Source: a virus (taxonomy: Duplodnaviria > Caudoviricetes). From it: a DNA stretch of 60,996 bases. The stretch lies in the IMG/VR virus record IMGVR_UViG_3300026512_000014, positions 1 through 60,996 of that record; one strand, 5' to 3'. Shown here piece by piece: positions 1 through 39,000 of the stretch (position 1 is the first letter of the stretch; each line of letters starts with the position of its first letter). The position numbers and the translations under genes are program-made. The notes beneath the pieces are model-generated. The model ran no database searches. It was not told where the DNA came from and saw only the letters and a program-made list of their open reading frames with translations.

Positions 1-508
1 CTTTGTTATTGAACCATTGAAGCATCTCAAGATTTGACAATACAGAATTAAGTGTATTATCAAATCCATTATCTTCAAAGAACAATACTCTCTTCGCACC
101 TGACTTGGTGAAGAGAGGAATCATTCCATCTATTCTATTCTCTAAAGCATACTTATAAGCATACTTTAAAGAATTAATATCATTTAACTTCCCGTCTTCA
201 AAGTCAATAATCATATTGTCGGGAAGTATATTCTCCTCGGTTAAAGCATCAATAATATTAGGCCTATAAGCCTTTAATACTTTAACCATCTTATCAATAT
301 CCATTTGGTATTCATATACCTGCTTATTTGTAACTCTATACAAATAAGCCTTGCGAAGAAGTTTTATATACTTCTTCGCATAATTTTTGGTATCAATGCC
401 ATTTAAACGCATATGATACCAGTCAAGAATCACTCTCCATATTTTCTGGTTAGCGGTTACAATTTTCCCACTCAAAATTTCTTCTGCAATTTCCCTAAAA
501 TTCTTCAT
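1..508 (-). CDS. Partial ORF (runs off window end); probable paralogue of the N-terminal part of the single-subunit RNA polymerase at 2472-5747
   Basis: Not in the ORF track. Hand translation from ATG at 508 (AAGGAG at 514-519) is open to base 1: MKNFREIAEE...AYRPNIIDAL...IPLFTKSGAKRVLFF...LEMLQWFNNK. It shares RP-x-h-h-D and LF..KSGA-x-R-h-h-aromatic motifs, in order, with the 2472-5747 protein. Confidence 0.8.
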   Translation of the reverse strand, partial: MKNFREIAEEILSGKIVTANQKIWRVILDWYHMRLNGIDTKNYAKKYIKLLRKAYLYRVTNKQVYEYQMDIDKMVKVLKAYRPNIIDALTEENILPDNMIIDFEDGKLNDINSLKYAYKYALENRIDGMIPLFTKSGAKRVLFFEDNGFDNTLNSVLSNLEMLQWFNNK

Positions 509-753
509 ACTTACTCCTTTCTTTAATTTATTTTTTTAATAAGTAAAGAAGAACCTTGTATGAATAGTCCGAGCGGGAAATAAATTGAAGAGTAGAATAA
601 AATTGGTGGCGCAGAAAAAGAGAAAGAAAAGAGAAAAAAGAAAAAAATCTGGCATTATATATTTATAAGCGTCAACCTTATATCAATACAGTCATCAACA
701 CTTACATTTTTATAACAACACACACTATAAAATAAATAGATACACTTCCTTAT

Positions 754-790
754 AAAAAAGAAAAAAGAAAAGGGAAGACAAAGCCTTCCC
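754..790 (-). terminator. Intrinsic terminator after ORF 816-1232
   Basis: Minus strand GGGAAG-gctttgt-CTTCCC followed by a T-rich tract. Confidence 0.8.
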
Positions 791-815
791 AACGGGACTG
801 ATAGAGTTACAACTA

Positions 816-1232
816 TTACGCCTTCTGCTTGGCTTTTTTCTTCAGCGAAACCTTGGCATCGGTTTTGACTTTCGGAACTGTTGCATTTACAGGAATACTT
901 TCGCCAAGCAGACTGGCTTTCAATTTGTTTCCAACTCTTCTGCGATACTCAAGCGTAGTTGGTTCTGCTTTGGTCACAGAAAGTTGATAAACGGTTTCTG
1001 AATACTCTTGGTTCTTTTCAGCAGGTTTGTTCCACGAATTCACTTCAATGGCAACATTATCCCATACTTGGCAAACCTGAACATTACCTTCAAACTTTGG
1101 CTTAAATTCATCAGTCAAGCCAAAAAGTTTGATAGGCTTGCCGATGGCAATAAGTTGGCCTTCGGCTTCAATTACCTGCTGAAAAGAAACCTTTGAAAGT
1201 TGAACAAGTTTAAAATTCGAATTAAGTATCAT
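816..1232 (-). CDS. Hypothetical protein, beta-rich with a Lys-rich C-terminal tail (possible nucleic-acid-binding protein)
   Basis: 138 aa with AAGGAG SD and its own terminator; ends KVSLKKKAKQKA. The function is a guess. Confidence 0.75.
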   Translation of the reverse strand: MILNSNFKLVQLSKVSFQQVIEAEGQLIAIGKPIKLFGLTDEFKPKFEGNVQVCQVWDNVAIEVNSWNKPAEKNQEYSETVYQLSVTKAEPTTLEYRRRVGNKLKASLLGESIPVNATVPKVKTDAKVSLKKKAKQKA

Positions 1233-1367
1233 AGGACACTCCTTAAAGTTTATTTAGCGCCGAAATCGACGCCATATATGAGTAGTCAATATTAAAATAA
1301 AGTTATAAATTGTGCAGATATATATTAAAGAAACCTGAATAAGTTTAAAAAAAAGAAAAGACGAAGG

Positions 1368-1416
1368 CGGGGATTTGTGAATACTCTCATATAGCAATCC
1401 CCGAACTATATGAGAG
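1368..1416 (-). promoter_or_regulatory. Predicted H-type RNA pseudoknot in the leader of ORF 816-1232
   Basis: Minus strand CTCTCATATAG-tt-CGGGGATT-g-CTATATGAGAG-tattcaca-AATCCCCG: perfect interleaved stems of 11 bp and 8 bp. Confidence 0.65.
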
Positions 1417-1756
1417 ATGAGGATAAAGGGAAGGAAAGCCTTCATTTATGAATAGTCAAGTATAAAACATAATTATAAGAAAACAAAAGAGTTATAAAAA
1501 AACGGGATTATATATATTCTTAATTCCATAATAATAACTATATTAATACCATATAATAATTAATAACACTATAAATAAAACTGCTATATTATTAAAACTA
1601 AACAACAAATATCTATCTCTAACATATAAAAGGACTTACACAAAAGCGGCTCTATTAATCTTTTATTCTTAATACTATTTTTCCTTACCAAATATATATA
1701 TAAATATAAAACAAAACTATATAAACACTATATAAATAATACACAACATTATAAAG

Positions 1757-1893
1757 TATCACATATAGCCATATACAACTATACAGTATCATACACAATC
1801 ATATACATACCATATACAATCATATATAGTGTCATATACAATCATATACAGTCATATACGGTCATATACATACTATATACAGTGTCATATACA
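1757..1893. repeat. Degenerate tandem repeat of ~10-12 bp units with core (G/A)TCATATACA
   Basis: For example gtcatataca atcatataca gtcatatacg gtcatataca at 1831-1870; about a dozen imperfect units in a non-coding, G-poor tract. Confidence 0.85.
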
Positions 1894-2410
1894 GGTGGTC
1901 ACACACGCCGCTAACGCTCAAGAAGGGACACATAAGAGAGAAACAACCAAATCAAAAACGGCATTATATACCAAACCACACACAATTACACACAACCACA
2001 CAGACAGCAACTCTCTGGTACCAAATATCTTTGGCCAACGGGCAAAAAGAAAGAAGAAAGAGAAAGGATACAAAGAGAAAGAAGAAAGAAAGACATATAC
2101 ACTCACACATACACTCGTATACACACATACTCACACAAACACAACCAACTGCAAACACGGCACACAATTTCATTTGTAATATAGTCCGTGAGCGGTATGC
2201 ATACAAATGAAATACAAATAATTATCTAATAATATGTATACATACATTCATATATACAGTTTTATCTATATATATCAACGTATATATACACTATAATGTA
2301 TAATATTTAAACATATAGTAATTAATAACAAAAAAATATCACAAAAATGCTTATTTTTATAACTATATTTAAAATCAATCACTTAGTTTTTTATTTCCTA
2401 TATAGAAAAT

Positions 2411-2446
2411 AAAAAGACACGGTGTACAATATATATACACCGTGCC
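2411..2446 (-). terminator. Intrinsic terminator after the polymerase-RNase H gene
   Basis: Minus strand GGCACGGTGTA-loop-TACACCGTGTC-TTTTT. Confidence 0.8.
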
Positions 2447-2471
2447 CTAAACTTAAAAAGTTAATAACTAA

Positions 2472-5400
2472 TTAAGACTCAAGATTGTCCTTAATAAGCC
2501 CCATAACCCGCTTACAATACTTGTCAGCCAGGTTATCTTTCCTTGGAATCTTAATTATGTCTATGTCAATGCGTTCATTAAGTGCATTAACAGTAGACAC
2601 ATAATGTTTAGTGATATCATTTTTGGCCTGCCATTCACCGGTAAGCCACTTGATAAGACCTTCATAGTCTACATAACAAGTGACTTTATCATAACCGTTA
2701 TCAATAGCAAACTTAATTGCCTCAATAACGGCCTGGCACTCACCAGCAACCTGTCTTGTATCAGAATCAACCTGTCCAAAATTAATATGGATAGTATCTT
2801 CCGATACATATGCCCAAAATGATTTACCGGGAATCTTATCAGTATAAGACCCGTCGCAATACATCTTTAACTCCATGTTTACCTCCAAATTAGAAAACTG
2901 GTAGGCCACATCATGCAGCCTACCATTTTCATTAAGGTTATTAAAATGCTCCACGAATATATTAACTATATTCTTTGGAGCAATACTAAAGAACGCACTA
3001 TCAGAAACCTTTGATGAGAGGAATGCCCAACAGACTTCCTCTTTAATACCAAGTTGCTTGGACAAGTTTCTGATATATCTATGGGTTTCTACACCAAGAG
3101 TATATATAGCCACGTTAACCAGCGATAATATCTCTTCTTCTCTATCAGATTCCACTCTTTTAACATAAGAAACCATCGACATGAAGAGATTGAACATCTG
3201 ACCAACAAGATAAAAACGTGGCCAATACTCTTTATTATTGGATAACTTGTTATACTGCTTTACAAGGCCGTTGGTATAAATCCAATCCTGATATATATAT
3301 CTATATGAGAAACCAACAACCTTGGAAGTCCATCTTGTGAATTTACCTCTGATGTCTTGTATATGAACTTCAGCAGTACCAAAGTCTTCATCAGACTTTA
3401 CAAGTTCTCCAAACCTTGTACACCACTTATGCAGAACAGACATATAATGTGCAAATAATTTATGAATCTGTTCCGTACCAGTAAATGCACTATACACACA
3501 AGAAAGTCTCCTCAAAGCAGAGATACTAATACCACGAAACTCCTTCAGTACAGCCCTAAATGTATCAACTTTCACAAATATTTTAGAGTTTTCAACATAA
3601 TAAATCTTCCTCACGAAAGCATCCACTCTGGCCTGTATCTCTGCCGGTGTAAGCAGACCCTCAATGTTCTTCTTCTGTGCATTAATAACCCCTTGTTGTT
3701 GAGCAAAGAGGAACTCAATGAGTTCATATGCTTCTTTAATCAACTTAGGGTTACGAAGAGGTTTAATGGGAATAACTCTGTCGCCTATTTGTACCTCTCC
3801 AGCACCAGTAAGAAAAGCATGTATCTGGTCTGCAAATCTTTCAACCATACCGATATGCGCATCATATTGTAAAGCAATAAACAAATGCAAATCGGATACG
3901 GTTTTAATGTAAGCAGGAACCTCAGGTAGTTTCACATGTGCAAGTGGCGCCACAGGACAACTCCTCAAGCACTTCAAAAACTCACCACTAAACAGGGTTA
4001 TATCATCACCATCAAAATCATGTCCACTCAACACCCTATGTGGCGCATTCATATGCATAAATGCAAAACTACCAAGGCCTTCATCATTAATAACAACATA
4101 CTCAGCAGGACAGTCTCCAGTGAAGGTAACTGGATTCTTATATACTCCTACCTTATATGCCCCATCTGCAACAGATGGTAAATCAAGACCGCTTACATTG
4201 GCAATGATGATTCTATCAATAGGATATAACTTCCTGCCAATATATACCCTTGCACCCTTGGTAATAAAACCAAGACCATGGATATATGCTTTAAAAGCAT
4301 CCATAGGCAAGGATGTAGCGGTACAAGTTGTACCTTTCTTTGTTGCAGACAAGTCGACAGTGAAGAGCCTGCGCACATAACCTTTAATAATAGTAGCAGC
4401 GTTGTCTTTGCGCAATACCTTTAAATTACCAGGCAATCCCATTTTAACTGCAACGCCATAAGGTGTAGAAATGCTGGCATTCTTTACAAGCAGGTCTATA
4501 TTGAATTTCGTATTGTCTCTCAACACCTCAACTGCTTTAGCATTATCGAAATTCCAATGATAGAACACGAACTGCTGCGACAACTGTGCACCTGCTTTAT
4601 AATCGGTATCAGTTTTCATCACCAGAAATTCATCTGGTGTGAAACTAAGCCCTTCCATATCCCCAACCAATGCATCTTGGTTGAGAATAATATCTGTCTT
4701 CTTCACCCATTTAGGACCAAGTCCCTCTGCAAGTTTCTCCCATACGGGTTCAGAAACTTCAACAAAAGTACCTTTGGCCCACAACTTGTTAGAAAAACTA
4801 ACAAGTGTGCCTTGAAAAGCAGTAAATGTATTAAACTTCGATGCTTTAGATAATCTCTTCAAGACACCTGGACGAAACCAAGCAACTACGCCGTCTGCTT
4901 CAGGAACACTGATAGCAGCGGCTTTAAGTTTTCTGTTCCCAACAAGAGGCATACCTTGCCTAAGCAAAAGTACACCAATCTTTGAGAACACCTTAAAATT
5001 TAAACTGCTGTTAATATAGTTGTCATTAACATAAGATATAATACCCATAACAGCAGCAACCTCACGAACCAAATCTTCAAGACGCATTTTCTTTGTTGTA
5101 TATATAATTCTGGATGCACCAGACTTGGGAGCAAATAATACTACTTGCTCAAGGTTTGTGTTATTAACAATTTTAAGTCCCTTTTCGGGTTTACCGCCAG
5201 ACAATACGTCAAGAACATTCCTGACTAAATCACGTCTGGTCAATAAATCCTTGTCAAGAGACTCATCATCCACCGCAATCTCAAAAGACAAGGTGTCAAG
5301 CATTAAATGCTTGAACTTATCATAATGCATATCCAAGACAGTTGGTCTATCCCAGATGTACCTTGTCTCTTCCGTGAGAGTATACTCCACATCATTTGTC

Positions 5401-5747
5401 CTCTCAATGACAATGAATCTTCTTTCGAAGATATCAAAGCCTTGAGAAGCAAACTTACGGATTGCTCTCTTGGAAAACCTCTGCCCTGCGATGAACGCAT
5501 ATGCCTGTTGTTGCAAATTAATATTTGTTATAACCTCAGGCAATGTTGCAGCGTTACACACTCTTGCGAGTTGTGCCGCTACTGCGAACCTCGCATAAGA
5601 GAAACGATTGATGAACCTGACCAATGTTGTTACAACCATCTTTGTAAGACGGCTGTTCTCTTCCTCTTTAGCAGAGTCGAGGAATGCGATAAACTTCCTT
5701 GCGAACTTGTTCATCGTATGGATTACAGAATCAATAAGATTCAACAT
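2472..5747 (-). CDS. Single-subunit double-psi-beta-barrel RNA polymerase (YonO / RNAi-RdRP-like) fused to a C-terminal RNase HI domain
   Basis: Polymerase motifs in the expected order: WAKGTF, VYKNPVTFTGD, SGHDFDGDD (DFDGDD at 4002-4019), HIG. The last ~134 aa carry RNase HI motifs YCDGS, VAGECQA, YVDYEGLIKWLTGEWQAKN, NLADKYC. Start moved from 5783 to the ATG at 5747, which has an AAGGAGGT SD. Confidence 0.85.
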   Translation of the reverse strand: MLNLIDSVIHTMNKFARKFIAFLDSAKEEENSRLTKMVVTTLVRFINRFSYARFAVAAQLARVCNAATLPEVITNINLQQQAYAFIAGQRFSKRAIRKFASQGFDIFERRFIVIERTNDVEYTLTEETRYIWDRPTVLDMHYDKFKHLMLDTLSFEIAVDDESLDKDLLTRRDLVRNVLDVLSGGKPEKGLKIVNNTNLEQVVLFAPKSGASRIIYTTKKMRLEDLVREVAAVMGIISYVNDNYINSSLNFKVFSKIGVLLLRQGMPLVGNRKLKAAAISVPEADGVVAWFRPGVLKRLSKASKFNTFTAFQGTLVSFSNKLWAKGTFVEVSEPVWEKLAEGLGPKWVKKTDIILNQDALVGDMEGLSFTPDEFLVMKTDTDYKAGAQLSQQFVFYHWNFDNAKAVEVLRDNTKFNIDLLVKNASISTPYGVAVKMGLPGNLKVLRKDNAATIIKGYVRRLFTVDLSATKKGTTCTATSLPMDAFKAYIHGLGFITKGARVYIGRKLYPIDRIIIANVSGLDLPSVADGAYKVGVYKNPVTFTGDCPAEYVVINDEGLGSFAFMHMNAPHRVLSGHDFDGDDITLFSGEFLKCLRSCPVAPLAHVKLPEVPAYIKTVSDLHLFIALQYDAHIGMVERFADQIHAFLTGAGEVQIGDRVIPIKPLRNPKLIKEAYELIEFLFAQQQGVINAQKKNIEGLLTPAEIQARVDAFVRKIYYVENSKIFVKVDTFRAVLKEFRGISISALRRLSCVYSAFTGTEQIHKLFAHYMSVLHKWCTRFGELVKSDEDFGTAEVHIQDIRGKFTRWTSKVVGFSYRYIYQDWIYTNGLVKQYNKLSNNKEYWPRFYLVGQMFNLFMSMVSYVKRVESDREEEILSLVNVAIYTLGVETHRYIRNLSKQLGIKEEVCWAFLSSKVSDSAFFSIAPKNIVNIFVEHFNNLNENGRLHDVAYQFSNLEVNMELKMYCDGSYTDKIPGKSFWAYVSEDTIHINFGQVDSDTRQVAGECQAVIEAIKFAIDNGYDKVTCYVDYEGLIKWLTGEWQAKNDITKHYVSTVNALNERIDIDIIKIPRKDNLADKYCKRVMGLIKDNLES

Positions 5748-5860
5748 TCCATACCTCCTTTCCTTCCCTCCGTTAATTACCATGACGCATAAGCGTCAAC
5801 CAACAACGCACAGTTGTTTTGTTCTCTATATCACCTCCTTTCAATAGAAATATTAGAGTT

Positions 5861-5912
5861 ATATATAACTCCACTATGTACTGCAATAACAGTACATAAC
5901 AGAATCATATAT
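5861..5912 (-). other. Long hairpin, 23-bp stem with G.U pairs
   Basis: Arms 5861-5883 and 5890-5912; every mismatch becomes G.U on the minus strand. Confidence 0.8.
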
Positions 5913-5935
5913 AAAAAAGGGGGCACAAAGCCCCC
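5913..5935 (-). terminator. Intrinsic terminator
   Basis: GGGGGC-tttgt-GCCCCC-TTTTTT. Confidence 0.9.
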
Positions 5936-5941
5936 ATCTAA

Positions 5942-6067
5942 TTAATCTAAATCAAATACATAACAAAGGTCATCGTAATAATCAGAAAGGTAAAGTAAAT
6001 TATTAAAATACGTATAAGACACACAAGTTTCCTGCAAATAATTAATTCTCTCCGAATTCCTTTTCAT
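5942..6067 (-). CDS. Small hypothetical protein (41 aa)
   Basis: GGAGG SD; MKRNSERINYLQETCVSYTYFNNLLYLSDYYDDLCYVFDLD; stop lies just before the terminator. Confidence 0.6.
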   Translation of the reverse strand: MKRNSERINYLQETCVSYTYFNNLLYLSDYYDDLCYVFDLD

Positions 6068-6084
6068 CCTTTCCTCCTTTTTAA

Positions 6085-6432
6085 TTAATCTAACCCTAAT
6101 AACATTTCGACAACAGAGTCACAAGGAACTCTATGCCTTTTACCACTAAAAATCCTCTCAAGAAACTGGCCTAATTTATGAATACCAATTCCTCCTAACT
6201 CCTCGGAACAGATATTAATCATATCTGCTCCTTCACGTACAATAGTTAATACACAATCAACATCATTGCTGTATAATACGCAATGACTATCATACTGCTC
6301 AACATGATTTCTAAATTCTTTATCGGTACCAATAAAATAATTGACACCATTATAAACCTGAAAATCAATGAGGTCCCCATTGGGAACCTCTTCTGTCAAC
6401 TCATACCTGTACACAAAAATCTTTTCAATCAT
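6085..6432 (-). CDS. Early hypothetical protein, acidic paralogue family
   Basis: AGGAGGT SD; KIFV..NGD..YFIGTDKEF..LERIFS..LLG, similar to 6453-7010 and 8742-9071. Confidence 0.85.
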   Translation of the reverse strand: MIEKIFVYRYELTEEVPNGDLIDFQVYNGVNYFIGTDKEFRNHVEQYDSHCVLYSNDVDCVLTIVREGADMINICSEELGGIGIHKLGQFLERIFSGKRHRVPCDSVVEMLLGLD

Positions 6433-6452
6433 AATTACCTCCTTTTAATTGA

Positions 6453-7010
6453 TTAATAAATAAACTCTTCTTTATGTACCCCTAATGCATCCGCAATTAA
6501 ATAATCAAGATTATACTCATATGCTTTATCGCTAAAAATGCGATACAAAACTTTCGCAATATCAGCAGCAGTTATATCATCAAGCCCATTATTATTAACC
6601 TTTTCCAATGCCTCTTTAACTGAAATTTGGAAAACAACTCTAAAATTTTCTTCAGGTATATCATTGACACTATCAACAATATACCAGCCCACTGCTACAA
6701 ATTCCTCTATATCACCATTGAAATGAGTCATCACACAATCCTGCTCAACAATAAAAATATTCTTAAATATAACAGACTCTTCTTCCACACTAACAAGTTC
6801 ATAAATATCATTCCCCAAGTCTTCAACCTCAACAATAGCGCTTGTATCTCTGTTACTATATGAAATTGTATCCTTAAAATCACAAACCACTCCAAGACAG
6901 TTAAATCCAAACTTAACTGAAAAAACAAATATTTTGTATTCATTATTCCCAAGTGGTACTGCAAAATATACGTCTCCTTCTTCAATCCATCCATTAAATT
7001 TCTTTTTCAT
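6453..7010 (-). CDS. Early hypothetical protein, acidic paralogue family with an extra N-terminal domain
   Basis: AAGGAG SD; C-terminal half NIFIV..NGD..ITAADIAKVLYRIFS..ALG. Confidence 0.85.
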   Translation of the reverse strand: MKKKFNGWIEEGDVYFAVPLGNNEYKIFVFSVKFGFNCLGVVCDFKDTISYSNRDTSAIVEVEDLGNDIYELVSVEEESVIFKNIFIVEQDCVMTHFNGDIEEFVAVGWYIVDSVNDIPEENFRVVFQISVKEALEKVNNNGLDDITAADIAKVLYRIFSDKAYEYNLDYLIADALGVHKEEFIY

Positions 7011-7099
7011 AACATACTCCTTTTTTAGTTTTTCAATTTAATTAGTTAATAACAAATCATCAACTCGCACCATTAATTCTTATTCCTATTACCTCCTTC

Positions 7100-7260
7100 C
7101 ATAAGTGCCACCTGACACGTGTTCATACACATGCACACATCAGTGTCAACTTATAATCGTACGTGTACGTGTACGTTATCTTCATAATGCAATGCTTACG
7201 TGTACTTAACAAATAACTTAAACATTGCAATCCTCTCAAAAACGAGGTAACGTACACGTC
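7100..7260 (-). ncRNA. Structured RNA element, copy 1 (unknown family)
   Basis: 12-bp closing stem (7167-7178 with 7248-7259) enclosing a CCTC/GAGG hairpin and a TGCAATG/CATTGCA hairpin, then a long hairpin at 7101-7154; homologous to 8424-8623. Confidence 0.65.
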
Positions 7261-7274
7261 ATAGAATTATAGAT

Positions 7275-7296
7275 AAAAAGGGGTCCCGAAGGGCCC
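7275..7296 (-). terminator. Intrinsic terminator with UUCG loop
   Basis: GGGCCC-TTCG-GGACCCC-TTTTT. Confidence 0.8.
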
Positions 7297-7318
7297 AACA
7301 GAAAATGCAAATTAATTA

Positions 7319-7450
7319 TTATTCTTCATGAAGTCCTAATGCTACTGCGACCAAATAGTCATAATAGCATTGATACCCATTGGAAAACATGTGCTCAAGC
7401 GCAATCACTATATTGGTCGCACTTGCTTCTTTCAAAGACTTTTCATCTTC
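7319..7450 (-). pseudogene. 3' remnant of an acidic paralogue family gene
   Basis: EDEKSLKEASATNIVIALEHMFSNGYQCYYDYLVAVALGLHEE* aligns with the C-terminus of 6453-7010 (ITAADIAKVLYRIFSDKAYEYNLDYLIADALGVHKEE); no SD-linked start. Confidence 0.7.
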
Positions 7451-7495
7451 TCTATATATCACTACTATCTATATATAATAATAATGATACACAAA
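7451..7495 (-). other. Long hairpin, 18-bp stem with G.U pairs
   Basis: Arms 7451-7468 and 7478-7495 pair fully on the minus strand when G.U is allowed. Confidence 0.65.
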
Positions 7496-7508
7496 TAAGA
7501 TATTAAAC

Positions 7509-7533
7509 AAAAAAAGGGGAGCAAACGCTCCCC
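7509..7533 (-). terminator. Intrinsic terminator
   Basis: GGGGAGC-gttt-GCTCCCC-TTTTTTT. Confidence 0.9.
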
Positions 7534-7538
7534 AAAAC

Positions 7539-7751
7539 TCAAATTCTTGTTACGGTTATGTCCACATGTTGCTCCTTGGCAACAGTGCAGACATAATTAA
7601 CAACATTAGTAAACATAAACTTGTCCAACTTATTGGACAAGTTATAAACAGAAACCACCTCAATTCCAATCTTTGAGGCCAACTTCTCGTTGACCTCAAC
7701 AACGGCCATCGTTCCCTTGATGACCGTAACATGACAATAATTATACTTCAT
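7539..7751 (-). CDS. Early hypothetical protein (70 aa)
   Basis: AGGAGGT SD; followed by a terminator. Confidence 0.8.
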   Translation of the reverse strand: MKYNYCHVTVIKGTMAVVEVNEKLASKIGIEVVSVYNLSNKLDKFMFTNVVNYVCTVAKEQHVDITVTRI

Positions 7752-7760
7752 AATAACCTC

Positions 7761-7931
7761 CTATAAAAATAATGCCGTCATTATGACGGCCATAATAATA
7801 ATTTCACGAAGCCCAAGTTCGGGCTCCTCAGGACCTGTTAATATCATGTTATTAACAACCTTGGCGGCCAATAAGGCCACCAAGAAAAACGCACAAAAAA
7901 TAAACAGATAAAATAAAATAACCGTTAACAT
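7761..7931 (-). CDS. Small membrane protein with two hydrophobic helices (56 aa)
   Basis: Not in the ORF track. MLTVILFYLFIFCAFFLVALLAAKVVNNMILTGPEEPELGLREIIIMAVIMTALFL*; TAATG coupling to the upstream gene; AAGGAGGTGA SD. Confidence 0.75.
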   Translation of the reverse strand: MLTVILFYLFIFCAFFLVALLAAKVVNNMILTGPEEPELGLREIIIMAVIMTALFL

Positions 7932-8131
7932 TACATCACCTCCTTTAAAAACTCTACGGCAGCAATATCACCGTAGAGTTTTTTAAGTTTTCTAACAGCA
8001 TCGACACGGTCATGTGCCGATACTACTGAGATGAATTCTGGTTCATCCCAGTTTACCCTAACCGCCACCACAAAAGTAATAGGAGTCAATAACAACTTCC
8101 TCATAACTTTGTCAATTAAAACATCTAACAT
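7931..8131 (-). CDS. Early hypothetical protein (66 aa)
   Basis: AGGAGGT SD; tightly packed operon. Confidence 0.8.
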   Translation of the reverse strand: MLDVLIDKVMRKLLLTPITFVVAVRVNWDEPEFISVVSAHDRVDAVRKLKKLYGDIAAVEFLKEVM

Positions 8132-8142
8132 AATACCTCCTC

Positions 8143-8346
8143 TTATAACTCTCTTACCAGGAAACCTCTCCTGGCAAGAGAATTTTTAATGGTTAATAAA
8201 TCACCACGCTCTTTCCTTATAACCCCTTTTCTGGGGTCATAAAGAGTCGCATACCCGTTAGCAACATTAAGAACAAGCAGCACCTTCAATTGGTGCTGCA
8301 AGTGTTTTGGAACCAAATCGGTCCAATGAATCTTTTTTTCACACAT
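8143..8346 (-). CDS. Early hypothetical basic protein (67 aa)
   Basis: AGGAGGTG SD precedes the ATG at 8346 (MCEKKIHW). Confidence 0.8.
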   Translation of the reverse strand: MCEKKIHWTDLVPKHLQHQLKVLLVLNVANGYATLYDPRKGVIRKERGDLLTIKNSLARRGFLVREL

Positions 8347-8423
8347 AGACACCTCCTAAAACTTAATAGGTTAATAAAACTAATTCCCTTACCGCACATC
8401 CTTTTTTCTTTATCACCTCCTTT

Positions 8424-8623
8424 CATAAGCGTCATCTGAGACACACTCATGCACACGCACACATCAGTGTTAACTTATAGTCATACGTGCACGTGCACGT
8501 TGTCTCCGTGATGCAATGCTTGCGTATACTTAAACAACTTGGGCATTGCAATCCCCTCAAAAACGGGGTTATTTTAATAAGCCCAATACGCAATCCTCTC
8601 ATAAACGAGGTAAACGTACACGC
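8424..8623 (-). ncRNA. Structured RNA element, copy 2, with an internal duplication of the small hairpin
   Basis: Colinear with 7100-7260; closing stem 8492-8501 with 8613-8622; contains both CCTCGTTTATGAGAGG and CCCCGTTTTTGAGGGG. Confidence 0.65.
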
Positions 8624-8634
8624 CAAGAGTTATA

Positions 8635-8698
8635 TATATAACTCCACTATATATCACCATATCAATTAAGATATAATGATACATAATGGAACTATATA
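8635..8698 (-). other. Long hairpin, 29-bp stem with G.U pairs
   Basis: Arms 8635-8663 and 8670-8698; shares ATAGTGGAGTTATATAT with the hairpin at 5861. Confidence 0.85.
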
Positions 8699-8701
8699 AA
8701 T

Positions 8702-8722
8702 AAAAAGGGGGCCGAAGCCCCC
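8702..8722 (-). terminator. Intrinsic terminator with UUCG loop
   Basis: GGGGGC-TTCG-GCCCCC-TTTTT. Confidence 0.9.
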
Positions 8723-8741
8723 AACAAAAAACACAAATTAA

Positions 8742-9071
8742 TTATGCACCTAAAACACCCAAAACATCATAAACATAAGGAGACATAATGTTTTGGTTCC
8801 ACGAGTTGCAAATAGCAATTGCAACTTGTGTCGCAGAAAAACCACTTGTTCTACTATTGTTATTAATTAACTCCATAACACTATCAACTCCTTTTTCAAA
8901 AACAATATTAAGAAGCGCATCATGTTCCTTATCAACATACGCTTCAAATTCTTCTTTTGTTCCTATAAACCAATCATAGGAACAAAAAGTATCTGTAATA
9001 ATAACATCACCATTCTCATCAACTTCGGTAATCCAATCTTCTACATAAAAAACAAAAATTTTCTTTTTCAT
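8742..9071 (-). CDS. Early hypothetical protein, acidic paralogue family
   Basis: AAGGAG SD; KIFVF..NGD..WFIGTKEEF..SATQVAIAI..VLG. Confidence 0.85.
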   Translation of the reverse strand: MKKKIFVFYVEDWITEVDENGDVIITDTFCSYDWFIGTKEEFEAYVDKEHDALLNIVFEKGVDSVMELINNNSRTSGFSATQVAIAICNSWNQNIMSPYVYDVLGVLGA

Positions 9072-9170
9072 AATAAATCTCCTTTTCCTCTTTTAATTTA
9101 TTCTGTTAATAAACCAAAAAACCAATAACCGCACATAATTAATATCTATCACCTCCCTTCTATATAAATA

Positions 9171-9231
9171 TTTACTTAATATCTTAATTATGTATTACCA
9201 AAAATAATACATAACTAAAACATTAAATAAA
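9171..9231 (-). other. Long hairpin, 27-bp stem with G.U pairs
   Basis: Arms 9171-9197 and 9205-9231; four mismatches, all G.U on the minus strand. Confidence 0.8.
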
Positions 9232-9250
9232 AAAGGGCCCCGAAGGGCCC
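9229..9250 (-). terminator. Intrinsic terminator with UUCG loop
   Basis: GGGCCC-TTCG-GGGCCC-TTTTTT. Confidence 0.9.
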
Positions 9251-9277
9251 AACGGAAATACTAATGTTAATAAAAAA

Positions 9278-9778
9278 TTATCTTAATTTTGCTGAATTTG
9301 CACCGCAAAATAAAGAAAGATGATTAATAACATACTTCTCATCGAGAACATCATAATGCTCCGATACACTGTGAATGAATTCACATTCACCTAAAAATTG
9401 TGCCCAATAAGTAGTTCCTCCGCTTTTACATTTTACATAGAGTCTGTTATCATCCTCAATCTTAATATCGTTCTCAATTCTTTGGATAAACTTATCATAT
9501 CTAACCGCAAATTTTGGGATAGTATGTCCAGGACTCCAAAGGTCTCCAGAAATTCTTTCCGAAATAATCACATACTCTCCCGTAGGGTCATATCCTACTG
9601 TACCATTACCAATTTCTCTGCAATCAATGTTTGACAAGCACATTATTTCGTGCTTGTTTGCGTCTTCAATTTTAATCTCGTCAGTCTGAGACAAATCTAT
9701 AAGATTTGTCCTGAAAATATTCTTCAACATTTTCTCTACTTTACCCGCATACTTTTCAATATAAAACACGCTTAACAT
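9278..9778 (-). CDS. Early hypothetical protein (166 aa), first gene of the leftward block
   Basis: AAGGAG SD; terminator downstream. Confidence 0.85.
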   Translation of the reverse strand: MLSVFYIEKYAGKVEKMLKNIFRTNLIDLSQTDEIKIEDANKHEIMCLSNIDCREIGNGTVGYDPTGEYVIISERISGDLWSPGHTIPKFAVRYDKFIQRIENDIKIEDDNRLYVKCKSGGTTYWAQFLGECEFIHSVSEHYDVLDEKYVINHLSLFCGANSAKLR

Positions 9779-9929
9779 AATAATCTCCTTTTTTTATTTT
9801 TTAGTATAAATATTTATATACCGCCTTATACCAGAGCGGTTAATAATAAAGTTAATATAAACAACCCCATGCCGCACATCTTTCTCTTTCTTATCACCTC
9901 CTTTCTTTCTGCCCATTTGGTTAATAACA

Positions 9930-9977
9930 CAGGGGGGGTGGGCAAATCCCCCTGGGACTCCACCTTTTGACGAGTCC
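9930..9977. other. GC-rich tandem hairpins at the divergence point
   Basis: CAGGGGG..CCCCCTG (9930-9954) abutting GGACTC..GAGTCC (9955-9977). Confidence 0.55.
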
Positions 9978-9978
9978 T

Positions 9979-10090
9979 ACACATATACCTCTGCTTCTGT
10001 TTGTGTATTCTTATATTTACACACATACTCCTATCTCTGCTTATGTTCACACATATACCTCTGCCTATATTTGCATACACCTCTATATCT
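9979..10090. repeat. Short imperfect direct repeats ACACATATACCTCTGC
   Basis: Exact copies near 9979 and 10048, with degenerate copies near 10021 and 10073. Confidence 0.7.
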
Positions 10091-10328
10091 TTGTGTTTTA
10101 TATTTTTATATTTTTTAAAAAAGAGTGCGGCATTTCCCTATATCCCCTTTCTTTTTTCCTTAAAAGTTGGTTTTAATATATTTCTCTTTGGTACCAAATA
10201 TAAACTTATATATAAAACATTTCCCCAAAGAAAAAAGGTTATAGAAAAAAGAAACATATGTTAATATATATATGTTGGTTATATATATTAACTGATTTAT
10301 TTTAAAAAAACATTCCACGGAGGTATTA

Positions 10329-10727
10329 ATGGTTAATTTAGAAGAAGTAAGGGACAATATTGTTATGGTACAGGTACTGGGTGGGCAGCCTATTATTGGT
10401 GTACTTGAAGACAGCAATGGTGTATATAATAATATGGATGCGATAGTGTTAAAATATGCTGTTATGTTTCAAACTCATATAGGTGAAGACAAACAAATGA
10501 GTTTTGTACCTGTTAAGTTAAGTAGTTTATGTAAAGAGGATGCTGAATATTTTATTAACAAAAGTCATATTATATTTATTACCGGTGATTTGGATGATGA
10601 AATTATTGATTACTATATTGATATGTTTAAGATATTAACAGGTGAATCAAGTTCGTCTTATGATGCTGATACTGCAGAAGAAGTTAAGGAAGATGATAAT
10701 ATTATTAAACTTAACAGTGAGAAATAA
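10329..10727 (+). CDS. Hypothetical protein (small beta-rich domain, acidic tail)
   Basis: GGAGGT SD; 132 aa. Confidence 0.8.
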   Translation: MVNLEEVRDNIVMVQVLGGQPIIGVLEDSNGVYNNMDAIVLKYAVMFQTHIGEDKQMSFVPVKLSSLCKEDAEYFINKSHIIFITGDLDDEIIDYYIDMFKILTGESSSSYDADTAEEVKEDDNIIKLNSEK

Positions 10728-19184: not shown

Positions 19185-19608
19185 TGTTACAAATACAGCA
19201 ATAGCAAATATATTTGAACCACTTGCTGCACCGCTAAAATTAAAAGGTGTAGATTATACTACATCTGCCTTTACATTTGATAATATATGGAGATTATATG
19301 CACGTTTGTATCCTCTTATGATGTTAGATTTTGTTCATCAAAAAGATTATAATACGTTTGTAAAGTTTGTTAAAGCACATAAACACAAGGTTGTTGCACA
19401 TAAAATTGCTTTGCCATCTGGGCAACTTGCAGCGTTTCATCCATTAACTTTAATGATTCTCGCTGCAACTGTTTCTCCAGAGCCTTGGAGCGGATTACCT
19501 GCTAAAAATATACCAGGAGGTTTATTAATGAATCCTATGTATAATGCGTTAAGAACATTATCAAAAACAACTCTTGAAATAGATAAAAAGAAAAAGGAAT
19601 ATTTATGA
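19168..19608 (+). CDS. Hypothetical protein
   Basis: TTG start with GGAGG SD; fills the operon gap. Confidence 0.7.
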   Translation: MLQDINVTNTAIANIFEPLAAPLKLKGVDYTTSAFTFDNIWRLYARLYPLMMLDFVHQKDYNTFVKFVKAHKHKVVAHKIALPSGQLAAFHPLTLMILAATVSPEPWSGLPAKNIPGGLLMNPMYNALRTLSKTTLEIDKKKKEYL

Positions 19609-33408: not shown

Positions 33409-34128
33409 ATGGCATATAATGCAACAAATCTCAATCCCACTGCTACAAGTTATACTTTTAGCAGTGTATCTGGGGTTGATATTAAAATGGTATTCCACGG
33501 AAGAGTAATTGGTGAAGTCCAGTCTTTTTCTTACAGATTGCAGAGACAAATTGTACCGGTTTATACACTTGGAACACAATATGCAAGGTCTTTTGGCTAT
33601 GGTACAACTGCAATCGCTGGGCAAATGTCATTTATTTTGACAAACAGAAATGCTCTTCTTTATGGAATCAGAGAGATTATGGCCGCTGGCCACTCATTAG
33701 AAAAACCATGGCTTGACAGAGAAGATGCTAAGCCTGACATGTTTGGCCCGAATGATGTCGCTGCTCCAATTGTTAATGCTAATGATACTAATTTTACAAC
33801 AGTTGGTGTAAGAAGAAATGATAATATCGTGGCAAGTCCGGTAAGTGAAACTGACCCTTATGTATACGTTGGTGAAGATAATTTAAACACTTCTCTTATA
33901 GAAGACCAAATTCAAATGCTTCCCAACCACGTTGGTGAAATTCCTCCATTTACTGTAACAATAGTGTCATCAAATGAAATGGGTCAAAGTTCAGTTATGA
34001 AAGTTCATGGCGTTAAATTACTTGCAGAAAGTTATGCAATTTCAATTGACCACATTACATCAGACCTTGTATTTGATTTCATTGCATTGTCAATTGACCC
34101 ATGGACACCAATTAATAGACAACAATAA
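33409..34128 (+). CDS. Tail tube protein
   Basis: Directly after the sheath; SGVDIK, SYRLQR, IAG, PPFTV..NEMG; followed by a terminator. Confidence 0.8.
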   Translation: MAYNATNLNPTATSYTFSSVSGVDIKMVFHGRVIGEVQSFSYRLQRQIVPVYTLGTQYARSFGYGTTAIAGQMSFILTNRNALLYGIREIMAAGHSLEKPWLDREDAKPDMFGPNDVAAPIVNANDTNFTTVGVRRNDNIVASPVSETDPYVYVGEDNLNTSLIEDQIQMLPNHVGEIPPFTVTIVSSNEMGQSSVMKVHGVKLLAESYAISIDHITSDLVFDFIALSIDPWTPINRQQ

Positions 34129-34222: not shown

Positions 34223-34888
34223 ATGAGTATATTTGATACACCACAATTTGCACAAGATTATAAAGAATTTGAAAATGAACATAAGGCATTCCAAACATTT
34301 TCAGGTGCCGACATACATGCATATATTCCATATTATGATGGTAGCAATGTAAGAATTATTAAATTTTCAGAAATACAAACAATAACGTATTCAATACACA
34401 GAGCAACAAAAAATATTTATTCACTTGGCAATCCATTACCTGTTGGTGTTGTTCAAGGTAGCAGAACAATTGCAGGTTCTTTAATTATGTATAAATTTGA
34501 TATGGATGCAATGTCCGAAATATTTAAAATATCATCAAATAATGCTATTATGCTTGACCAGTTACCACCATTTAATATATTAATAGATGTAGCAAATGAA
34601 ATGGGAATAAGAAGATATGTAGGAATATATGGTGTTAAAATAATAACAGAAGGACTTGTTATGTCTATACTTGACTTGTCAACAGAAGTAACATGCCAAT
34701 ATACAGCAATGGATATTGAACCATTAAGAGAATATAAAGAATTTGAAGCAAGAATATTACAATCAAATTATCCTACAATGGCTATTGATTTTCAAGAAAT
34801 TATAGATAATGAAACAGGTAGAGCACAATTTAGAAATAATCCTGTAAAACAAAGTAACGATATCTTAAACGATATAACAAATAGATAA
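34223..34888 (+). CDS. Tail-tube paralogue
   Basis: FSGADI, TYSIHR, RTIAGS, LPPFNI..NEMG..YGVK, colinear with 33409-34128. Confidence 0.8.
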   Translation: MSIFDTPQFAQDYKEFENEHKAFQTFSGADIHAYIPYYDGSNVRIIKFSEIQTITYSIHRATKNIYSLGNPLPVGVVQGSRTIAGSLIMYKFDMDAMSEIFKISSNNAIMLDQLPPFNILIDVANEMGIRRYVGIYGVKIITEGLVMSILDLSTEVTCQYTAMDIEPLREYKEFEARILQSNYPTMAIDFQEIIDNETGRAQFRNNPVKQSNDILNDITNR

Positions 34889-35480: not shown

Positions 35481-36074
35481 GTGGCTTATATAATAGATAA
35501 TATATTTAATTACAACCAAATATTTGATGCGCTCATAAAATATGGGCGCCTTTTTGTGTTTCTAAATGAAAAAGATAACGATATTATTATATTCAGACGC
35601 TTAACTGTATCTGAACTTGAATTTGTTATAGATAGAATTTTTAATGCTAACCAATTTCAAAAGATTATACTTGAAAATTATATATGGGATAAAATTGTAC
35701 TACATTATAATAAAAAACTTGATATAAATGAGATAGACGCAGGGCTACCAACAACAATATGCAATCTCGCATTAAGCAAAAGTGCAATATATGATATAGA
35801 TAAAGTTGTTGATGCAATTGAAGAAAAGAAAAAAGAACTTGGACATATTATCTCATTGCCAAAACTAATGGCATTAAAATTTAAACCAGATATTGATTTT
35901 GATAATATATCATATGAAGAGTTATTAACTTATGCTGCAATGTGGGATTCGCAGCAAGAATCATCATTAAAAGAAAGATATGAAGAAGCAAAACGTGAAG
36001 CAAAATTAAGAGAAGCAGAAGCAAAAAGCAAAGGCGCAATAGATGTTACCAAACAAAATATCCCAGGAATATAA
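35481..36074 (+). CDS. Putative tail assembly chaperone paralogue
   Basis: FRRLTVSE and DAGLPTT resemble the preceding gene. Confidence 0.6.
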   Translation: MAYIIDNIFNYNQIFDALIKYGRLFVFLNEKDNDIIIFRRLTVSELEFVIDRIFNANQFQKIILENYIWDKIVLHYNKKLDINEIDAGLPTTICNLALSKSAIYDIDKVVDAIEEKKKELGHIISLPKLMALKFKPDIDFDNISYEELLTYAAMWDSQQESSLKERYEEAKREAKLREAEAKSKGAIDVTKQNIPGI

Positions 36075-39000
36075 AGATAGACCACCAAAACAAGTTGGTC
36101 CGTTACATTATTTAAGAAGTAGAGTTAGAAATCCAAACAATATTCGTGTATCCCCTTCTGTTGCTGCTTATAAAAAAGCAAGAGATGATAACGAAAGATT
36201 ACTTAATTATGTGTCTCCATTAACAACCGCTGCATTAAAAACAACTGTTCCTTTATATTTTTTATCACAAATTAAAGACATAGATATAACTTCACAAACA
36301 ATAAGAAATTGGTATTTATCGCAGCCATTCAATAATATATACAAAAATTATCCATTTCCGACAGAAGCAGAAGCAAGAAATGCAACTATAAAAGTTGGTG
36401 ATGTAATACATCAATTATTTGTTAATCTCGAATCATTCGCATCACCAATATCTTGGCTTCAACCTTCTTCTTCGTTGTCACCATTTTTGATACCCACATC
36501 AAATAAATCACTTGTAATATCACCACAGCAAATTAAAAAAGACATAAAATATTGGAAAGAAGTAATTGATAAGGCAAATTATCCTGGGTTCTTTGATTCT
36601 ATTAAAACCGAGTTATTAGAAAGTGGTATTATAGTTGAAAATGGCGTACCAAAAATTAATAATGCATTAAGAACAGTCGTAGCCCCAAGAGCAAAATTTG
36701 TACAAAAAATATTAGAACTTAATACAAGAAGACAAGTTTCACAGACTTGGCTTGCTTATAGAGTTAAAAATAAAGCGGGCTATCATCCTGGGTCATATAG
36801 GGAATCATTTAATATATTGCTTGGTAAATCAACTGCTGATATATATTACAAATGGTTTAAAGCACAAGTTAGAGCATATTCATTAAGATATTTTAGATTA
36901 CTTGATGACCCTCTTGAATTCTTGTCATCATTTATCGGATTTGAAACAGGTGTAGAAAGAACTGCACTATATAAATCGTTTAAGAACAAATTTGGTGTTG
37001 GCGGTGCTAAATATTATGGTGAAAGTTTATATAAACTTTGGTTAAGACATATTGGGCTTGTTGGTAAAAATATTATTTTGCCATTAATAGCAGCAAAATA
37101 TACACATGAAAAATTAAAAGATATACATATAGAAAGCGGGATATTTACGCCAATAGCATATACTGGGGCAACATTAGATATTGGTAGAAGTATATATGGC
37201 AAACCATTTAAAGCAATAGCAGATGTTGGTGATAAATTTGTCCCAGGAATGTCAAGTCTTGGTGTTGCATTTGGCAATATAATGATGGCTGGTATTAATA
37301 CATATATTGGTGCCAGACTATTTCAATCTATAAGAACATCAGAAACATATGAAGCATTTTATAATATAGCAAACACATTTACTCCTTTAAATAAAAAAGG
37401 TCTTGAATGGTTAAGACCATTGTCAAAAATACAGCAAAAAGCATATTTAAGAGAAAAAGTTAAATATGAAATCCCAGAATTATTAAAAAAATTTATGCCA
37501 AGTAAACTTGGTGAATTTATAGAAAAAAGAATTGGTTCTGTTTCTCATATGGGCAAGGCTGCTCGTACTGCAATGATAATTGCTGGCATATTGTCAATTC
37601 CAAATGTAATATTTGGAACAGCAAGATTATTAGGTGGAGAGAAAGATACAAGCACTTTAATTCAAGAATATACAGGCCATAAAAATGTTCCTGTTTATCA
37701 ATCTCATGATTGGCTCTTTGGGCAACAGTACCGTGGTGGTGAATTTGCCGCATATATGGGACCAAATTGGTTTCAAAGAATGATACATGATTATAGAGGT
37801 AAAACATTATGGCGCAACAACGAAAGTGCAGAATTTAGAACATTAAAATCAATACCAATAATACAGGATATAATAAAACCATACTATCTTGAAGAAACAA
37901 ATTTTAAACATCAGCCATACCCAATTACAGGGCCTACGACATCTTTTCTTGGACCGATAGGTCCATTATATGGTGCAACACTTGGACAATTGTTTAAACC
38001 TACAAAATATATGTTTCCTGAACAATGGGCATTAACACAAAAAGATGCGCTTAAAAAATATGAACAAGAAAAAATTCCAACAGCAATATATCAACAAACA
38101 GTGGCACCAATACAACCCCACCAACAATCTGTAATGCAAGAAGTATATGGGACACCATTAAACGAACCTTTCATATTTGATGTTACAAAACCAGCAAGAG
38201 GGAAAGGGATAGAACCTTTAATAAGCCCATATTCTGCACCAATATTAACAGCACAAGCAATATCTGCATGGCAAGAAACAATAGGTCTTCCTGGTTATAT
38301 ATCAAGATTATTAGTAACAAATCCCGAAGAATGGTATTCGCAATATAATGTATTGCCATCTGCTTCTGAAATAAATTCATTATCAGAACAATATTATTAC
38401 ATGAATCTTGGTGACTATGGACAAACAGAAGCATGGAGACGTATAGTTATATTACAAAATGCAGCAAGAAAAGAATATAATATGATACAAAATGACCAAC
38501 CAGAGTGGATGCCAGACGAAGGTTTCTATATAAAATTTAGGCATGGAGACCCATACAGACAAATTTATAGAGGATATGAAAGAATACCAGGCCCTGGACT
38601 TACAGAAAGAAAAGAATTTGCTAATTTAAAAGGCGTTGAATATAAAAATTATCCATTATCAGCAAGACTATTAATTCTTGGCGACATAGCAATGACATCA
38701 GACCATTTTAAACAAACATATATGGTTGTTGATAAACTTGTAAAAGAAGGTAAAGCAACAAAAGATGAAGAGGCAGCACTAAAACGTGTAAGGTCTGAAT
38801 TTATACAAAAAATTTCATCAAGAAAATTTTTACCATATAGCAATAAAGAAGATTTATTACAGTGGTCATCATTAAATCCTATTAAAGGTGTGTTTAGATT
38901 AGCCCAAACATTAGAAGAATTAATTGTACATGCATCATCACCATTATCAGAATTATTGCCAGTTGCACCAAAAGAGAAATTCAGCATACATGAAACACCC

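Follow-up and report, generated by a model that had tools for sequence, protein, structure and literature searches.

At the left end of the IMG/VR virus record IMGVR_UViG_3300026512_000014, assigned to the Caudoviricetes, an open reading frame (ORF) on the minus strand runs off the edge of the sequence, and the present analysis deals with the protein to which this edge ORF belongs. The window, i.e. the whole stretch of DNA that was analysed, is the entire record of 60,996 bases, which is linear and has a CheckV completeness of 41. According to the original prediction the edge ORF is a further paralogue of the RNA polymerase (RNAP) encoded at 2472-5747, which would make three single-subunit RNAPs in all (virion, early/middle and late), and its catalytic part would lie outside the window. 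In the following, P0001 denotes the edge fragment of 169 amino acids (aa), P0003 the full-length protein of 870 aa that has P0001 as its N-terminal part, P0002 or P0005 the 2472-5747 protein, and P0004 the product of the 1856-aa ORF at 39960-45530. The features at and next to the edge are as follows.

508 to 2, minus strand: edge ORF P0001, 169 codons, ATG at 508-506, no stop before window base 1
520 to 514, minus strand: Shine-Dalgarno-like AAAGGAG, read from the sequence, 5 nt upstream of the ATG at 508
2472 to 5747, minus strand: P0002/P0005, two-barrel RNA polymerase core with C-terminal RNase H

The edge gene, its full-length product and its relatives

The search for longer proteins returned P0003 (870 aa), encoded on a 151,978-bp contig of a near-identical assembly; all 169 residues of the fragment agree with it (100% identity, E 7.5e-104). 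Another cluster member, P0154, lies on a contig of likewise 151,978 bp with overlapping sources and differs from the 2472-5747 protein at one of 1091 residues, and most likely P0003 and P0154 are encoded on one and the same contig. Given the identity over 169 aa and the near-identity of P0154, P0003 is hence the full-length product of the edge gene in a near-identical genome, and the continuity of the gene across the window edge is established. An ORF ending soon after the edge had been named among the outcomes that would speak against the prediction; the frame runs on to 870 aa. Only the N-terminal domain of P0003, including the invariant KSGAxR hairpin at residues 135-140, is encoded inside the window, and both barrels as well as the DYDGD motif lie beyond its left edge, just where the catalytic part had been expected. 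The left edge itself is an assembly break, because the Logan contig of X1, perhaps the source sample, ends at window base 48. Two contigs from other runs extend over it, namely X4 record 15, which covers window 1-216 and adds 169 letters further left, and X3 record 7, and an exact-match search with the first 60 bases of the window gave no match in the viral and metagenome contig collections. For annotation practice the case teaches that edge fragments can be rescued via the protein records of sister assemblies.

The paralogy with the neighbouring polymerase had been read by eye from two stretches, which correspond to P0001 residues 80-168 and P0002 residues 144-254 (in the 1103-aa numbering). 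MAFFT reproduced this alignment, with AY--RPNIID placed on YIWDRPTVLD and LFTKSGAKRVLFF on LFAPKSGASRIIY. BLASTP of the 169-aa fragment against P0002 gave a best E of 1.9 and did not recover it, the query being too short. When a hidden Markov model (HMM) was built from P0002 and the three further relatives P0006, P0007 and P0008, with P0003 left out, the fragment scored 10.2 bits and its residues 83-167 were aligned to the same region, PksGAsR on TKSGAKR; none of 1000 shuffles of the fragment reached this score, the best one giving 7.4 bits. Judged by these scores, the homology signal of the fragment taken alone is weak but real. The alignment of the full-length proteins is significant: P0003 and P0002 match in BLASTP with 109 bits, an E of 2e-28 and 146 of 561 positions identical (26%). 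It begins in the KSGA block, at K135/K220, and pairs DYDGDD with DFDGDD; P0003 and P0002 keep the same order along their entire length, down to FFxIAP close to the C-terminus. The paralogy is established by the E value and this colinearity, and the motifs that had been predicted for the missing part are all present in P0003, namely KG (245-246), KNP (451-453) and DYDGD (492-496).

A profile search over 1.84 billion representatives (about 15 billion proteins) yielded, among the matches listed, five polymerase-type clusters at E ≤1e-30, a count that holds for strong matches only. The members are the two proteins of this phage and P0006 (1215 aa), P0007 (1088 aa) and P0008 (945 aa), the latter three from contigs of 6-7.6 kb; each of the five belongs to a cluster of one or two sequences. 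The profile query included the RNase H domain, and the 1,599 matches at E ≤1e-3 were mostly RNase H proteins; the best 150 of them were examined, and polymerase relatives with matches poorer than about E 4e-10 could have escaped notice. With tblastn, P0003 gave no match in 50,697 phage records, and P0002 matched 281 of these records with its RNase H part only. The locus scans with the family alignment gave 101, 594 and 225 pattern matches in the viral, metagenome and genome contig collections, none of which was confirmed, nor was any from the scan with the fragment. The fragment likewise had no match in Pfam and PHROGs. Word-index protein searches returned P0003 itself only and missed even the paralogue, so that they are silent on rarity. 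The family is very rare, beyond the reach of current family libraries, and represents a distinct lineage of two-barrel RNAPs.

Within the family, P0006, P0007 and P0008 match each other in BLAST with E values of 1e-143 to 1e-170, P0002 matches these three with 1e-57 to 1e-92, and P0003 with 1e-36 to 1e-49. Judging by these pairwise values across the five members, the duplication behind P0003 and P0002 is an old one, or P0003 is fast-evolving, and the pair did not arise by a recent tandem duplication. With 22-25% identity to the others, P0003 diverges most within the family, and P0006 (E 1e-48) is closer to it than its own neighbour P0002 (2e-28). Such divergence would fit a protein that has become a non-catalytic partner or regulator of the RNase H-bearing enzyme. 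We consider this very improbable, because all family-invariant motifs are intact in P0003 (KG, KNP, DYDGD and QGxIxAxKK) and no sign of decay is visible. The positions invariant in all five members comprise, in P0003 numbering, KSGAxR 135-140, KIG 178-180, R185, G187, P204, DG 207-208, FQGTL 233-237, KG 245-246, E250, KNP 451-453, H485, DxDGD 492-496 and QGxIxAxKK 606-614.

The two-barrel fold and the choice of template

Among the relatives of the cellular transcription enzyme, single-chain two-barrel RNA polymerases are the minimal ones. To our knowledge, the characterised lineages are few, namely QDE-1/RDR, YonO, crAss gp66 and P23-45 gp64/gp96. A model of P0003 calculated with AlphaFold2 (AF2) on the 5-sequence alignment contains two beta-rich cores, at about 150-300 and 386-505, with strands at 195-300 and 393-502 and a per-residue confidence (pLDDT) of 60-87; AF2 on a 2-sequence alignment was unusable (pLDDT 31). 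In the comparison of the 5-sequence model with the Protein Data Bank (PDB) by Foldseek, all 15 listed rows down to rank 20 are single-subunit two-barrel RNA polymerases. The relevant structures are 8F72, 8F5M and 8H2M/N for the P23-45/P74-26 group, 2J7N and 7W84 for QDE-1 and plant RDR2, and 6VR4 for gp66, and the scores obtained with the P0003 model are:

QDE-1: Foldseek E 7e-7; VIA-align Z 12.8, 310 aligned residues (model 82-505)
P74 gp62: Foldseek E 2-4e-5 (range together with P32 gp64); VIA-align Z 11.5, 288 aligned residues
P32 gp64: Foldseek E 2-4e-5 (range together with P74 gp62); VIA-align Z 11.3
RDR2: Foldseek E 3e-4; for ZmRDR2, VIA-align Z 11.4, 303 aligned residues
gp96: Foldseek E 1e-4; VIA-align Z 10.9, 212 aligned residues
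crAss phi14:2 gp66: Foldseek E 1e-3; VIA-align Z 9.4, 422 aligned residues

In VIA-align, too, the first 15 rows are taken up by single-chain two-barrel RNA polymerases, and isolated or unrelated barrels (double-psi beta-barrel proteins; Pol II, p97) follow at Z ≤8. On gp96 the aligned ranges are model 142..506 and chain 461..793, and D492 of P0003 falls on D779; the metal motif of gp96 is reported as 779-DFDGD-783 (PMC10770324). Matches in BFVD are dominated by giant proteins of crAss-phages and include P23-45 A7XX94 and proteins named RNA-dependent RNA polymerase (RdRP). In an independent model of P0003, that of the ESM Atlas, the match to a PF05183 RdRP cluster has a TM score of 0.50/0.58 across 582 aa, and the feature score is 0.96. 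With hhalign, the family is colinear with a 5-member YonO-like profile over 423 columns (E 0.0025), whereby KNP falls on RSP, DFDGD on DFDGD and INAQK on IDxAK; the single YonO sequence against the family gave an E of 0.24 with the DxDGD block alone aligned.

In the P0003 model a single chain forms both double-psi beta-barrels, of which barrel B comes first, and the DxDGD of barrel A is preceded by [KR]-x-P, with KNP and the DYDGD position (DxDGD) invariant in five of five members; [KR]-x-P plus DxDGD is the signature given for two-barrel RNAPs in the literature, including the text available of PMC7824862. As candidates for the two basic residues expected from barrel B, K245 (in KG) and K223 are invariant, and hhalign places the R..KG of YonO on FQGTL, not on AKG. 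QGxIxAxKK at 606-614 lies in a predicted helix, where pLDDT is below 50, and aligns with the IDxAK of YonO. The fold class is established, and on the models the family is placed within the phage/RNA interference (RNAi) clade of two-barrel polymerases, where it is a member neither of the YonO family nor of PF05183.

Collectively, our data support the notion that the edge ORF is the 5' end of the gene for a second, predicted catalytically intact, single-chain two-barrel (double-psi beta-barrel) RNAP, an old paralogue of the polymerase-RNase H fusion, a reading to which we assign a probability of about 0.8. In this enzyme the N-terminal domain would be followed by barrel B (FQGTL...KG, about 190-300), a connector and barrel A (KNP-38 aa-DYDGD, about 390-505), and then by a helical C-terminal half carrying the invariant QGxIxAxKK. 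As in QDE-1, YonO, crAss gp66 and P23-45 gp64/gp96, the catalytic Mg2+ would be bound by the three DxDGD aspartates, with basic residues at the interface coming from barrel B.

Several observations weigh against this reading. The 701 residues beyond the edge are known solely from a protein record of another assembly. The AF2 model has a mean pLDDT of 47.7 and is poor outside the barrels, where the bridge helix, trigger loop and clamp region would be sought, and its TM scores in Foldseek are 0.2-0.3. The hhalign probability against the YonO profile is just 11.8%. Pfam and PHROGs gave no match to P0003 at E ≤1 and none to the polymerase part, and PF05183 (RdRP, gathering score 23.8 bits) matched neither P0003 nor P0002 at E ≤1. 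The profile of five YonO-like proteins found nothing in the window at E ≤10, and searches of the PDB by sequence or profile returned nothing for the polymerase part, 8F72 and 8F5M included. Finally, no RNA run is among the sequencing runs that contain the stretch.

The structural comparison also brings up an RNA template. P0003 could be an RdRP like QDE-1/RDR that copies phage or host transcripts into double-stranded RNA, and it is true that QDE-1 and plant RDR2 are the best structural matches and that the Atlas clusters carry PF05183. However, DNA-dependent phage enzymes match almost equally (P74 gp62, P32 gp64, gp96 and gp66, Z 9.4-11.5), and template preference does not follow from a common fold. 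PF05183 itself gives no match, also not in the six-frame translation of the window at E ≤10, where the control genome of B. subtilis did respond. Moreover, YonO is reported as strictly DNA-dependent in the text available of PMC5467207. An RNA-dependent activity of P0003 is hence a rather far-fetched reading, and DNA-dependent RNA synthesis by a second two-barrel RNAP would be the preferred one.

The polymerase-RNase H fusion and the leftward arm

The second polymerase gene and the signals around both genes comprise the following features.

4005 to 4019, minus strand: DFDGD metal-binding motif of P0002, from the motif scan
2514 to 2891, minus strand: RNase H type 1 (RVT_3-like) domain of P0002, residues about 965-1090
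2414 to 2448, minus strand: strong terminator-like hairpin, 15 pairs and T run, directly after the P0002 stop codon
772 to 790, minus strand: terminator-like hairpin GGGAAGGCTTTGTCTTCCC and T run, upstream of the edge gene
559 to 569, minus strand: GACTATTCATA, copy of GACTAYTCATA, about 50 nt upstream of the ATG at 508

The longest frame of P0002 begins with ATG 5783 and encodes 1103 aa; the gene-call start, ATG 5747, has an AAGGAGG site and gives 1091 aa, and is most likely the true start. The RNase H domain was found by PF13456 (36 bits, cut-off 21.6), PF00075 (E 4e-5), phrog_531 (E 5e-15) and PDB 2kq2 (E 1.6e-10). Its acidic residues are present in YCDGSY, AGECQ, YVDYEG and NLADKY, and the D, E, D and D positions are conserved in P0002, P0006 and P0007, the three of the five family members that carry the C-terminal RNase H fusion; P0003 and P0008 are without it. 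In P0006 a NADAR-like stretch (PF08719) lies between polymerase and RNase H, with 25.6 bits against a cut-off of 35.1 bits. In the literature we found no description of a polymerase-RNase H fusion of this fold, nor of two such paralogues as neighbours in one phage, away from its structural genes.

Both polymerase genes belong to a leftward arm at 1-10 kb, whose other ORFs are small and of unknown function; on the plus strand, the contractile-tail structural module begins at about 10.3 kb, with Clp-like protease, large terminase, portal, capsid, sheath and baseplate J. Judging by this gene position outside the structural block, both copies would be non-virion enzymes. In window 1-10500, terminator-like GC hairpins with T runs, mostly on the minus strand, number 31 versus 5.0 ± 2.3 expected (about six-fold), and they stand between nearly all small leftward genes, for example at 9250, 8722, 7885, 7533, 5935, 2448 and 790. 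Given the hairpins at 790-772 and 2448-2414, and for the edge gene also a ribosome site of its own, the edge gene and P0002 look like separate transcription units. The sequence GACTAYTCATA occurs in three exact copies, all on the minus strand and within 900 bp (559-569, 1277-1287 and 1447-1457), and two of the three are situated 45-50 nt upstream of start codons (508 and 1232). With one mismatch allowed, the whole window contains 6 copies versus 2.9 expected, which is not significant alone. From its placement we infer that GACTAYTCATA may be a candidate phage promoter element. A related site lies near 2170-2187. Between the polymerase genes, a 138-aa ORF (816-1232, minus strand) with a lysine-rich C-terminus has its own upstream copy of the motif and its own terminator, and no family match. 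A scan for sigma-70-like promoters was uninformative (44 versus 46.9 expected), the tRNA search found none, and Rfam gave no credible match in window 1-10,500, only sub-threshold miRNA and tmRNA noise.

Directly downstream of P0002, between the polymerase genes, follows a 1.2-kb AT-rich non-coding gap. At 1758-1894 a 10-11-bp unit (TGTATATGA-like on the minus strand) is repeated about ten times in this gap, and in this field the contigs of another study differ by insertions of 12 nt and 10 nt and by a skip of 33 nt. The repeat field, iteron-like in appearance, may represent an origin or some regulatory array. The same gap also has low-complexity tracts at 1970-2150 (GT/GTGT-rich and CTTT/CTTTCT), and upstream of the edge gene there is another tract of this CTTT-rich kind, at 613-647.

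At ColE1-type origins, RNA polymerase and RNase H make and trim R-loop primers. It might be possible that the pair of enzymes serves DNA replication in a similar manner, with the fusion making and trimming R-loop RNA primers and P0003 acting as the sole true transcriptase or as a second priming enzyme. The fusion of RNase H in three of five members with conserved acidic residues would be in line with such a role, as would the AT-rich gap with its run-variable repeats directly downstream of the fusion gene. Moreover, Iyer et al. 2021 (PMC7824862, in the text available) raise the possibility that phage RNA polymerases prime replication and that RNase H1 removes the primer. Nevertheless, P0003 and P0008 are without RNase H, no replication genes were found in the window, and the origin-like status of the repeats is a putative reading only. 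The characterised phage enzymes of this fold are, as far as the cited sources state, transcriptases, i.e. YonO, gp64 and gp96 (PMC5467207, PMC10770324) and, by the title of its PDB entry, gp66. A priming function of the pair is hence regarded as unlikely. The lineage bears on the question whether phage RNA polymerases can double as replication primers.

As a second transcribing RNAP, P0003 would most likely be produced once infection has begun, with its gene forming a transcription unit in itself. The promoters that it reads on the phage DNA would then differ from those of the RNase H-bearing paralogue, and the two copies would share the labour between them, putatively as the early/middle and the late enzyme of the original prediction.

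A possible virion-borne copy and comparison with known phage systems

In addition to the two genes of the leftward arm, the structural module contains one further ORF with a polymerase-like motif.

39960 to 45530, plus strand: P0004, 1856-aa ORF at tape-measure position, with RYP-38 aa-DYDGD

P0004 is encoded in the tail module, with sheath, tube and chaperone genes on one side and baseplate genes on the other. Its motif spans residues 1368-1413, with DYDGD at 44184-44198, and the spacing of 38 aa between RYP and DYDGD equals that of the two polymerase paralogues P0003 and P0002. The composite pattern [KR]xP-30..42-DxDGD, which was defined after the data had been seen, occurs twice in the window (P0002 and P0004) versus 0.007 expected per shuffled set, and none of 2000 shuffles gave two or more. 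P0004 was blank in phmmer against the PDB, PHROGs, the viral contigs and in phage tblastn; hhalign against the family alignments aligned the 15-residue motif alone, and the ESM Atlas gave a feature score of 0.81 with no structural support. On the motif evidence, the chance that P0004 is a third, virion polymerase is put at about even, and the parallel with the tape-measure-fused gp96 of P23-45 would be a lead, not a finding. P0004 is flanked by two other giant ORFs, 36043-39960 (1305 aa) and 45530-49621 (1363 aa), the latter with an endolysin-like stretch (phrog_20474, E 1e-22).

The P23-45 group offers a comparison in paralogous copies. In the text available of Chaban et al. 2024 (PMC10770324), P23-45 gp64, like P74-26 gp62, is described as the non-virion RNAP and gp96 as its tape-measure-fused virion paralogue. 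The phage studied here shares with P23-45 gp64/gp96 the single-chain two-barrel fold, the DxDGD at an equivalent position and the presence of paralogous copies in one phage, and, as a motif-based candidate, it may also share the further copy in a giant protein at the tape-measure position, as in gp96. Unlike in P23-45, two copies instead of one lie outside the structural block, one of them is fused to RNase H, there is no match at the sequence level, and the tail is contractile, with sheath and baseplate J. QDE-1/RDR2 resemble P0003 as the best structural match, with both barrels covered to the catalytic loop and the same barrel order, B then A; in contrast, these eukaryotic RNAi polymerases (PF05183) have about 12-13% identity to P0003, which gives no PF05183 match and stands in a phage context. 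The two-barrel core is also shared with crAss phi14:2 gp66, which, however, is a 2180-aa virion protein of a podovirus, whereas P0003 is an 870-aa protein encoded away from the structural genes.

YonO of the Bacillus prophage SPbeta is likewise a phage polymerase that consists of one peptide (about 840-870 aa) and has DxDGD and colinear motif blocks. It is reported to transcribe late genes as a strictly DNA-dependent enzyme (Forrest et al. 2017, PMC5467207, in the text available), and late-gene transcription by YonO provides a precedent for a transcription role of this kind in a phage. Three phages have the nearest terminases, namely Moorella phage MTATph1, Bacillus phage 0305phi8-36 and Acinetobacter phage ME3, and the family profile found no member in them, while the YonO profile finds the 0305phi8-36 enzyme at E 4e-22. 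Hence, with the YonO profile blank in the window and the family profile blank in the YonO-bearing 0305phi8-36, the family is a new one, separate from YonO. A different parallel comes from the jumbo phages phiKZ and AR9, for which paired virion and non-virion multisubunit RNAPs are described in the sources available (PMC7598289, PMC4666361). As in these phages, sets of paralogous two-barrel polymerases would serve different gene classes in one phage; however, their enzymes are split, multisubunit and near to cellular beta/beta', whereas here single chains of the other major clade are encoded.

The boldest combination of these elements would be a three-polymerase system derived from one ancient two-barrel enzyme, in which P0004 enters with the DNA, P0003 is the transcriptase, and the fusion writes and afterwards trims R-loop RNA at the adjacent iteron-like repeats as a one-protein origin-priming machine. 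We regard this arrangement as improbable. If true, a polymerase-RNase H fusion of this fold would for the first time have a defined role, and there would be a second, independent case of a tail-delivered two-barrel polymerase, in a contractile-tailed phage. For the reading in which the edge gene encodes a second RNAP, the significance lies in a further two-barrel lineage that is beyond detection by current family libraries, and in small enzymes (870-1100 aa) that could be used for probing what a minimal core needs for promoter recognition and RNA displacement.

Some further observations concern the structural module and the origin of the material. Adjacent to each other after the sheath gene, the plus-strand ORFs 33409-34128 and 34223-34888 are paralogues that both match phrog_9206 ('major head protein'); by their position, they are more likely tail tube proteins. 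One of the sequencing runs that contain the stretch, perhaps that of the source sample, is labelled 'hydrothermal vent metagenome'. The 12-mer TTGATAATATAT has four plus-strand copies in the structural module, at 19277, 30845, 35899 and 50874, and a near-copy at 53686. Three of the four copies are located 28-144 nt before a gene start, and the 12-mer could be an extended -10-like late promoter or a promoter of a phage polymerase.

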